Virus record (IMG/VR): IMGVR_UViG_3300009119_000001
Coordinates: 1 to 63,018 of that record
DNA: 63,018 bases
Origin: an uncultured virus (IMG/VR IMGVR_UViG_3300009119_000001)
Taxonomy: Duplodnaviria; Heunggongvirae; Uroviricota; Caudoviricetes
Direction: 5' to 3' (one strand)
Within the stretch, counting starts at the first letter, position 1. Every line of letters begins with the position of its first letter. Shown piece by piece: positions 19,327 to 19,398 of this stretch. The notes under the pieces are model-generated. The model was not told the DNA's origin and did not search any database. It worked only from the letters and a program-made list of their open reading frames with translations. The position numbers were made by a program, and so were the translations under genes.

Positions 19327-19398
19327 TTATTTATTCATTACGTACATTGTTACTTCAAAGCCAAAACGCATTTCTGTAGCAGCAGGTTTAGTCCACAT
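19327..19398 (-). CDS. pqqA: pyrroloquinoline quinone precursor peptide PqqA
   Basis: Absent from the ORF track. Hand translation [23 protein letters not shown] with the W..P...R.G.EVTMY signature (ExxxY); RBS AGGAG 6 nt upstream. Confidence 0.95.
   Translation of the reverse strand: [23 protein letters not shown]

Follow-up and report, generated by a model that had tools for sequence, protein, structure and literature searches.

A gene for the peptide precursor PqqA in an uncultured phage genome and its recurrence in phages of methylotrophic bacteria

Introduction

Does a phage encode PqqA, the peptide from which the cofactor pyrroloquinoline quinone (PQQ) is made, and what would it gain from the precursor of a pathway whose enzymes belong to its host? 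The question is raised by a 72-nt minus-strand open reading frame (ORF) at positions 19327-19398 of the uncultured virus record IMGVR_UViG_3300009119_000001 from IMG/VR, whose whole length of 63,018 bp we refer to as the window. The record is a complete virus genome with direct terminal repeats (CheckV completeness 100%). PQQ is built from one glutamate and one tyrosine of PqqA by PqqE with PqqD, and then by further enzymes. Because PQQ is made from the peptide's own residues, PqqA is consumed one-for-one while the enzymes are reused. Members of the Methylophilaceae (OM43, LD28/Methylopumilus, Methylotenera) are major methanol consumers in oceans, lakes and engineered waters.

A reading of the DNA letters alone (the original prediction) had taken the ORF for a phage pqqA preceded by an AGGAG ribosome-binding site, had likened its peptide to Methylophilaceae PqqA, and had suggested that a phage lacking pqqBCDE supplies the consumed substrate to a methylotroph host. 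Here, we report that the ORF is a genuine phage PqqA gene, that copies of it recur under purifying selection in many phage genomes, and that it probably acts as an auxiliary gene supplying substrate to host PqqB-E.

Identity of the pqqA Gene

The ORF and its Shine-Dalgarno sequence lie exactly where the original prediction had placed them (Table 1), and because the open frame around the ORF spans only 26 codons, it cannot belong to a longer gene. Its 23 codons make a stand-alone small-peptide gene in the range of about 20-30 residues. Against the Pfam model for PqqA (PF08042) the peptide scores 42.4 bits (gathering score 21.1, E 6.4e-11) over model positions 1-19 of 19, and against the NCBIfam PqqA equivalog (TIGR02107) it scores 40.4 bits (cut-off 20) over positions 1-21 of 21, about twice the cut-off in both cases. 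This is the sole PqqA match in the 63,018-bp window, and the same search matched none of 14 control genomes. The predicted glutamate and tyrosine of the ExxxY pair are present as Glu15-Val-Thr-Met-Tyr19. The suggested likeness to Methylophilaceae PqqA turned out to be identity: 20 viral loci and at least 19 from bacteria encode the same peptide. In 5 of 5 Methylophilaceae genomes, pqqC scores above its cut-off and accompanies 3-7 pqqA copies.

The gene is embedded in viral DNA. The major capsid gene is its immediate upstream neighbor on the same strand, and an HNH homing-endonuclease-like gene and tail-module genes lie downstream. When the window is compared with bacterial pqqA loci, nucleotide similarity extends over the coding sequence and only 10-24 nt upstream of the ATG, and because it ends there, the regulatory surroundings are the phage's own. 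Family models for pqqB, pqqC, PqqD and pqqE matched nothing across the whole window genome, in keeping with the original prediction; as a positive control, the pqqC model detected pqqC in 5 of 5 Methylophilaceae genomes. Linkage to pqqBCDE, which is usual for PqqA genes without defining them, is accordingly not seen in the phage; in Methylophilaceae, too, orphan pqqA copies apart from these genes are the norm (PMC4109929). We conclude that the minus-strand ORF at 19327-19398 is a genuine phage PqqA gene.

Occurrence in Cultured Phages

A tblastn search with the window peptide as a short query against 50,697 phage records matched 12 records, nine of which are Methylophilales or Methylophilaceae phage isolate records: Venkman and P19250A (95.7% identity each), MEP301 (91%), MEP401 and MEP402 (87%), and four Melnitz records (77%). 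The uncultured spring podovirus MW202481 matched at 100%. Two matches labelled 'Acinetobacter phage MD-2021a' proved to be bacterial DNA with ppk and pqqA-B-C-D-E and were dropped from the count as phage. On one of them, CAKLQF020000010.1 (1-6054), ppk, a 5'-nucleotidase gene and pqqA-B-C-D-E form a piece of bacterial chromosome, and the phage label is doubtful. All genuine matches are therefore phages of Methylophilales or Methylophilaceae and the one podovirus, which supports the methylotroph host suggested for the window phage. The gene is present in 9 of the 9 Methylophil*-named records that surfaced; NCBI taxonomy also lists MEP431-434, HIM624-A, phiMB624-A and Venkman EXVC038S, which stand outside this count. 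Cultured phage-host systems with pqqA thus number five (Venkman, Melnitz, MEP301, MEP401/402 and P19250A).

In all six of the phage records inspected, pqqA is missing from the annotation: four have no feature at its position, and MW202481 and Melnitz have a hypothetical ORF on the opposite strand. The six peptides all exceed the Pfam PqqA threshold (37-43 bits), and each copy has the ExxxY motif, its own start codon and a Shine-Dalgarno-like sequence. In P19250A the gene occupies 2501-2569 of KX815270.1. Genomic settings differ among the six phages, for example a recombination module in one case and a place between tRNA genes beside the baseplate hub in another, and a 3.2-kb DNA query from MEP402 has only the pqqA stretch of about 60-95 nt in common with P19250A, MEP301, Venkman and Melnitz. 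Standard annotation misses pqqA.

Spread and Selection in Uncultured Viruses

To assess the distribution of viral pqqA, we searched IMG/VR with a back-translated DNA pattern of the 11-residue core that PqqA peptides share and found at least 120 contigs with the core. The statistics on viral copies rest on 120 IMG/VR contigs among the matches listed, in which the ExxxY motif is set by the search pattern and hence is no independent evidence. All 120 copies read in frame to the stop codon; 114 have the canonical 23-codon form, and six carry one or two extra residues before the tryptophan. As many as 103 distinct nucleotide sequences encode only 37 peptides. Over the ten codons that the pattern leaves unconstrained, synonymous diversity (pS) is 0.51 and nonsynonymous diversity (pN) is 0.16, giving a pN/pS of 0.31 compared with 2.4 and 2.7 in the shifted frames, and pS in the core is 0.63. 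Viral pqqA is under purifying selection.

Signals around the coding sequence are also retained. Each of 113 viral copies has a Shine-Dalgarno-like core 4-18 nt upstream, compared with 61 of 580 control windows (11%), and the 70 nt after the stop codon fold at a mean of -17.8 kcal/mol in 111 viral copies, compared with -10.0 kcal/mol in controls (p 4e-21). This 3' hairpin is strong in viral and bacterial copies alike (z -3.2 and -4.5). Structure in the 5' untranslated region (UTR) is moderate over all viral and bacterial copies (z -1.3 versus their own shuffles), with a raw energy no better than that of random 50-mers, and a clear signal is confined to the lineage of the window.

The viral contigs are not fragments of host genomes. 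When 48 ORFs from five host pqqABCDE loci were compared with the 120 viral loci, the window and the six phage-record loci, only two, both antisense to pqqA, matched any viral locus. None of the 120 viral loci has pqqB-E beside pqqA. The immediate neighbors form 90 distinct upstream/downstream family pairs; contexts were counted by neighbor family, as single-linkage on shared ORFs put 122 of 128 loci in one component. The commonest neighbors are a Hydrolase_2 endolysin upstream (18 loci), a single-stranded DNA-binding protein (SSB) downstream (18 loci) and a capsid protein of the window type upstream (16 loci, the window and contig L230 included), and further neighbor families include T4 RegA, T4 gp23, Erf, Peptidase_M15 and DUF3310. 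An annotated phage family is the immediate neighbor in 63 of the 120 loci. The upstream neighbor shares the strand of pqqA in 58 loci and lies opposite to it in 55, a mixed orientation that fits a self-contained unit. In the T4-like contigs L104 (IMGVR_UViG_3300023178_000019), L110 and L127, pqqA adjoins the gp23 major capsid gene, and in five other loci it follows the gene for the T4 RegA translational repressor. Together with the window-type placement, the T4-like contigs mean that two unrelated phage types have put pqqA beside a capsid gene.

Codon usage separates viral from bacterial copies. The GC content at third codon positions (GC3) is 0.19 in viral copies versus 0.31 in bacterial copies (p 4e-10), and 31 of 114 viral copies but none of 123 bacterial copies use AGA as an arginine codon; the pqqA of the window itself uses CGT rather than AGA. 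The nearest neighbor of a viral copy is exclusively viral for 76 of 114 copies, tied for 21 and exclusively bacterial for 17. Copies with AGA are found in 23 different upstream contexts, several of which hold both AGA and CGY forms, a mixing that could stem from transfer of the cassette among phages or from recurrent drift toward AT, two causes that 72 nt are too short to separate. Viral pqqA is thus a resident phage gene and not a fresh capture or host contamination, and phages of methanol-eating bacteria appear to carry it commonly, for the most part without annotation.

Bacterial pqqA and the Likely Host

The same core pattern, applied to prokaryote genomes (one per species), matched at least 120 stretches. 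By record title, the 120 listed comprise 91 from Methylophilaceae, Methylophilales or OM43, 25 with broad labels only (Burkholderiales, Betaproteobacteria, Proteobacteria and the like) and four with other names (Acidovorax caeni twice, Rhodocyclaceae and Pseudomonadales). The host of the window phage is most likely a Methylophilaceae methylotroph. Among the matches listed, the best bacterial nucleotide match of the window gene, 97% over 72 nt, is on a Methylotenera-labelled contig, and loci with this label have a mean GC content of 0.448 (range 0.36-0.60) beside 0.445 for the window, a weak hint at Methylotenera as the host genus.

These bacteria multiply pqqA without the rest of the pathway. 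Each of the five Methylophilaceae genomes tested has 3-7 copies of pqqA but just one pqqC, and in a Methylopumilus genome of 1.3 Mb none of the three pqqA copies is near pqqC. The consulted part of an earlier paper likewise gives 3-12 pqqA copies and a single pqqBCDEFG for Methylophilaceae (Beck et al., 2014, PMC4109929), and a PQQ-overproducing methylotroph is described, in the text consulted, as having pqqA1 and pqqA3 expression that peaked with the rate of PQQ synthesis (PMC9851590). Since hosts amplify pqqA alone, a phage copy would extend the same logic.

Proposed Function and Alternative Explanations

Several observations bear on the function of the phage gene, namely its identity as pqqA, the absence of pqqB-E, purifying selection, the translation signals, its recurrence across many unrelated phages of the host family, and the multiple pqqA copies of the hosts. 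On these grounds we consider it likely that phage pqqA is a functional auxiliary gene that supplies substrate and relies on host PqqB-E. During infection, PqqA would be translated from a small cassette comprising 5' hairpins, a Shine-Dalgarno sequence, 23 codons and a 3' hairpin; host PqqD and PqqE would cross-link Glu15 and Tyr19 of the phage peptide, and host PqqB, PqqC and peptidases would complete PQQ. The phage would carry just the consumable part of the pathway, as each PQQ destroys one PqqA. The supply of PQQ to periplasmic methanol dehydrogenase could then be kept up or raised while host gene expression declines, and sustained methanol dehydrogenase activity may support the energy supply of the infected cell. 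If phages of methylotrophs routinely carry pqqA, viral infection directly tunes methanol oxidation, and the supply of precursor peptide would emerge as the bottleneck for PQQ, and through it for methanol oxidation, during infection.

Transcription and translation of the gene during infection, processing of its product by host enzymes, and a gain in PQQ or phage yield are inferred. A number of points weigh against this proposal. Among sequencing runs, none clearly of RNA contained the locus; those labelled RNA-Seq were flagged as probably DNA, and the runs examined gave related DNA contigs only. A strong terminator separates the capsid gene from pqqA. A sigma-70 consensus scan of positions 18600-19700 found zero promoters, although the same scan also missed the capsid terminator, and the best score in a second promoter scan upstream of the window pqqA was only 7/12. 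Transcripts might originate at the weak conserved box or at a promoter specific to the phage, or reach pqqA by reading through the capsid terminator. Moreover, PQQ is recycled and the hosts already have 3-12 pqqA copies, so an extra copy may matter only if host transcription collapses. The OM43 hosts of several pqqA phages are grown with 1 nM PQQ, according to the consulted text of PMC9004378, and the phages still replicate, from which it follows that pqqA is non-essential under those conditions. As for the survey, the search pattern fixes the 11-residue core, so that its conservation is in part built in and copies that have diverged or broken would escape the search, and only 88 of the 120 loci hold an annotated phage family, the remainder resting on the IMG/VR classification.

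Might pqqA instead be a neutral hitch-hiker, a tiny mobile cassette spread by recombination or with homing endonucleases at no benefit to the phage? An HNH endonuclease gene does adjoin pqqA in the window and four relatives, the 90 neighbor contexts, with pqqA often antisense to its neighbors, speak of mobility, and so do the many contexts of the AGA variant and the contexts that hold AGA and CGY forms together. A neutral passenger is nevertheless expected to decay and not to track host metabolism, whereas pN/pS is 0.31, the Shine-Dalgarno signal and the open frame are intact throughout the listed copies, and, apart from one uncultured spring podovirus, every genuine match among 50,697 phage records is a phage of a single host family. 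We therefore regard neutral spread as unlikely. A non-coding role at the DNA level, in which the stretch serves as a homology patch, attachment site or recombination target for host pqqA, would make use of the 3-12 dispersed host copies as repeated targets and would agree with phage-host similarity being confined to the gene and the ribosome-binding region. Yet viral and bacterial copies differ mainly at synonymous sites (core pS 0.63, GC3 0.19 versus 0.31, AGA in viral copies only), the reverse of what a need for DNA identity predicts. The best bacterial identity is 97% over only 72 nt, start codon, Shine-Dalgarno sequence and stop codon are kept throughout, and no integrase was found among 51 window ORFs scanned, all of which makes such a role highly improbable.

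[quoted passage not shown] The window peptide is identical to host PqqA, however, and as such indistinguishable from the natural substrate, and no phage-encoded modifying enzyme adjoins pqqA; we give this explanation very little weight. Finally, an ORF of just 72 nt could be a chance frame or host DNA mis-assembled into a viral contig, and one phage-labelled record did prove to be bacterial DNA with pqqABCDE. This explanation is effectively refuted by model E-values of about 1e-10, by the complete genome with terminal repeats, by the capsid-pqqA arrangement, which recurs at 67-82% nucleotide identity in one additional contig and in 14 independent ones from IMG/VR, and by the restriction of host likeness to the coding sequence and ribosome-binding site. 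Supply of substrate to the host pathway thus remains our preferred account.

Comparison with Known Systems and Earlier Reports

Cellular PqqA of Methylophilaceae (PF08042/TIGR02107) has the same length and ExxxY core as the window peptide and is identical to it in at least 19 loci, and in the cellular genes the Shine-Dalgarno-proximal region is the same, as is the strong hairpin that follows the stop codon. The window gene stands alone, like many orphan host copies that are not next to pqqB. It differs in that its flanks beyond about 20 nt are phage sequence, and viral copies as a group differ from cellular pqqA in being richer in AT at third positions and in using AGA, unseen in 123 bacterial copies.

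In cyanophages, psbA (the D1 protein) is the textbook auxiliary metabolic gene. We put at about even the chances that Methylophilaceae phages, taken as a guild, have pqqA for their signature auxiliary gene, the methylotroph counterpart of cyanophage psbA. That estimate is for a joint proposal, which would also hold that the carriers are podo-, sipho- and myovirus-type phages without other common DNA, that gene callers miss pqqA because it has only 23 codons, that it forms an autonomous mini-cassette of promoter-like box, 5' hairpin, Shine-Dalgarno sequence, ORF and terminator, and that this cassette is swapped between unrelated phages, sometimes beside homing endonucleases. The parallel lies in phages of one metabolic guild, from unrelated lineages, carrying a fast-consumed component of the energy machinery of the host. 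The psbA product, in contrast, is a large structural protein that is used directly, whereas pqqA encodes a 23-residue peptide in need of at least four host enzymes, and expression during infection has been shown for psbA but is presumed for phage pqqA. If the proposal holds, pqqA also offers a ready means of linking uncultured viral contigs to methylotroph hosts. Its 33-nt core provides a simple probe with which to find methylotroph phages in viromes.

Phage-encoded PqqA is already known, and the suspicion in the original prediction that viral pqqA might have been noted in lake viromes was well founded. The T4-like population VP_266 from Lake Baikal has PqqA on its representative contig (Coutinho et al., 2020, Microbiome 8:163, PMC7678222). 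In the part of that report consulted, VP_266 is a predicted Methylophilaceae phage with 35% GC that also encodes methanol dehydrogenase and peptide deformylase, and its PqqA is interpreted as an auxiliary gene boosting methanol oxidation and as a feature of this one population (PMC7678222). Both VP_266 and the window phage encode PqqA, but the window phage has 63 kb and 44.5% GC, and neither a PQQ-dependent dehydrogenase nor a peptide deformylase domain was found by Pfam among the 51 window ORFs scanned. The window is thus a new member in a different phage lineage. The same text states that phage P19250A encodes none of its auxiliary metabolic genes (PMC7678222), a remark that needs correction in light of the P19250A copy. 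A study of reservoir sediments (2026) lists viral pqqA, pqqD and pqqE as auxiliary metabolic genes of phosphorus solubilization in the text consulted (PMC13188868), in contrast to the 120 loci here, which are without pqqB-E.

In the consulted text of the isolate papers on MEP401/402 (PMC10580990), MEP301 (PMC8024684) and Venkman (PMC8163748), no word starts with 'pqq', and in that of the Melnitz paper PQQ is named only as a medium ingredient (PMC9004378). A non-exhaustive literature search found no publication of pqqA in all the cultured methylotroph phage records examined here, P19250A included, and no account of viral pqqA as a widespread, selected cassette with phage codon usage, although supplements may hold more. 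The novelty is modest for pqqA itself and higher for the pattern around it.

The Capsid-pqqA Lineage and Its Signals

Among the matches listed, 16 loci share the arrangement of capsid gene followed by pqqA: the window, 14 IMG/VR loci and contig L230, the latter 15 at 67-82% nucleotide identity within the lineage. In alignment, the intergenic order is kept, from the capsid stop codon through a GC hairpin with T run, a -10-like box and a hairpin to the Shine-Dalgarno sequence, pqqA and the final hairpin (Table 1). The GC hairpin with T run is found at the position of the capsid terminator in most of the 16 loci, and the position aligned with the CACAAT box of the window reads TATAAT, CATAAT or TACAAT in relatives. 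The 5' hairpin is kept as a structure at a similar place while its stem sequences differ between loci. A perfect 5' stem of at least 6 bp is present in 11 of the 16 loci versus 9-12% of controls, and one of at least 5 bp in 16 of 16 versus 30-37% of controls, counts that are non-independent given that the 16 loci are related by descent.

Downstream of pqqA in the window, the 3' structured region contains an 8-bp hairpin, a long GC-closed stem and a U-rich tail, and is probably a terminator or mRNA stabilizer. The HNH gene is convergent with pqqA, and its 3' end overlaps this structure. It occupies this spot in the window and four relatives and looks like an insertion, because only 5 of the 16 loci have it; such a gene could help to carry the neighboring pqqA cassette between phages.

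Table 1. Features of the pqqA locus and of the structural gene run in the window.
Feature	Position	Strand	Evidence or description
Large terminase gene	start of run at 27179	-	phrog_38, E 1.4e-111
Portal gene	after terminase in the run 27179-13671	-	
GroES-like co-chaperonin gene	22543-22944	-	phrog_3188, E 1e-10; Pfam Cpn10 just under cut-off
Four conserved phage proteins	between GroES-like and major capsid genes	-	function unassigned
Major capsid protein gene, HK97-like	19565-20473	-	phrog_371, E 2.3e-24; PF25209 Phage_capsid_4, E 1.1e-14
Capsid intrinsic terminator	19510-19534	-	9-bp stem, UUCG loop, U run; -15.7 kcal/mol, z -3.03
-10-like box CACAAT	19468-19473	-	putative promoter element, weak in the window
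5' UTR hairpin, upper	19441-19460	-	8-bp perfect stem TATACATA / TATGTATA
5' UTR hairpin, just upstream of Shine-Dalgarno	19421-19436	-	GCGCA-loop-TGCGC; -8.2 kcal/mol, z -2.85
Shine-Dalgarno AGGAG	19405-19409	-	6 nt before ATG
pqqA coding sequence	19327-19398	-	23 codons and stop: ATG, 22 further codons, TAA
3' structured region after pqqA stop	19243-19326	-	-23 kcal/mol, z -2.74
HNH homing-endonuclease-like gene	18847-19302	+	phrog_2255 HNH endonuclease, E 9.2e-22
Two small genes, then 1432-aa tail protein	downstream of pqqA in the run to 13671	-	

Two further candidates at the locus were rejected. The upstream motif ATATGTATARAAAGCGCA was considered as a genome-wide promoter, but it has only one site in the window, a count equalled in 19 of 100 shuffles. 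The 3' hairpin of pqqA (19254-19306, minus strand) resembled abiF RNA at 27.1 bits in Rfam, below the gathering score of 37, probably a mere resemblance between hairpins.

Locus L121, which is related to the window, carries an inserted tRNA-Tyr gene (anticodon GTA, 2708-2789) between the capsid terminator and the promoter-like box. Contig L230 (CAUYTX010000455.1, 1-8000) is a 12-kb contig within a bacterial assembly of 3.3 Mb and carries a fragment of a window-like capsid-pqqA phage. As the rest of that assembly gave zero PqqC matches and no further pqqA, leaving the copy on L230 as the only one, we rejected the assembly as a host link for the window phage; L230 is probably stray phage sequence rather than the prophage of a methylotroph.

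Genomic Setting of the Window Phage

The pqqA gene is part of a minus-strand structural run from 27179 to 13671 that proceeds from terminase, portal, GroES-like and capsid genes to pqqA and the tail genes. The GroES-like gene lies inside the head module, flanked by portal and capsid-region genes. Terminases of phage DSL-LC04, phage 023Pt_psg01 and the Pelagibacter phages HTVC027P and HTVC023P share 50-57% identity with that of the window, and because the relatives of the window terminase are at this level of identity, the lineage of the window phage differs from that of any cultured methylotroph phage. A Pfam pass over 51 further window ORFs identified DNA polymerase A, SNF2 and DEAD helicase domains, DUF927, a PD-(D/E)XK nuclease, an SU10-type adaptor, an M15 endolysin and NinX, and a genome scan for tRNA genes found none in the window.

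An AAA/AAA_5 ATPase gene (32720-33796, plus strand) lies close to a DUF2201 gene (34417-35571, plus strand) with metallopeptidase-like and VWA-like parts, a pair that we take to recall MoxR-type ATPase/VWA systems. It was rejected as a MoxR-like helper of methanol dehydrogenase, having only generic Pfam domains and no NCBIfam match. In a wastewater metagenome, contigs of high depth are nearly identical to the head module of the window at 21516-22500 (1-3 differences per 234-513 nt), while the capsid region in the same metagenome has diverged from that of the window, indicating that a close relative of the window phage is abundant there.

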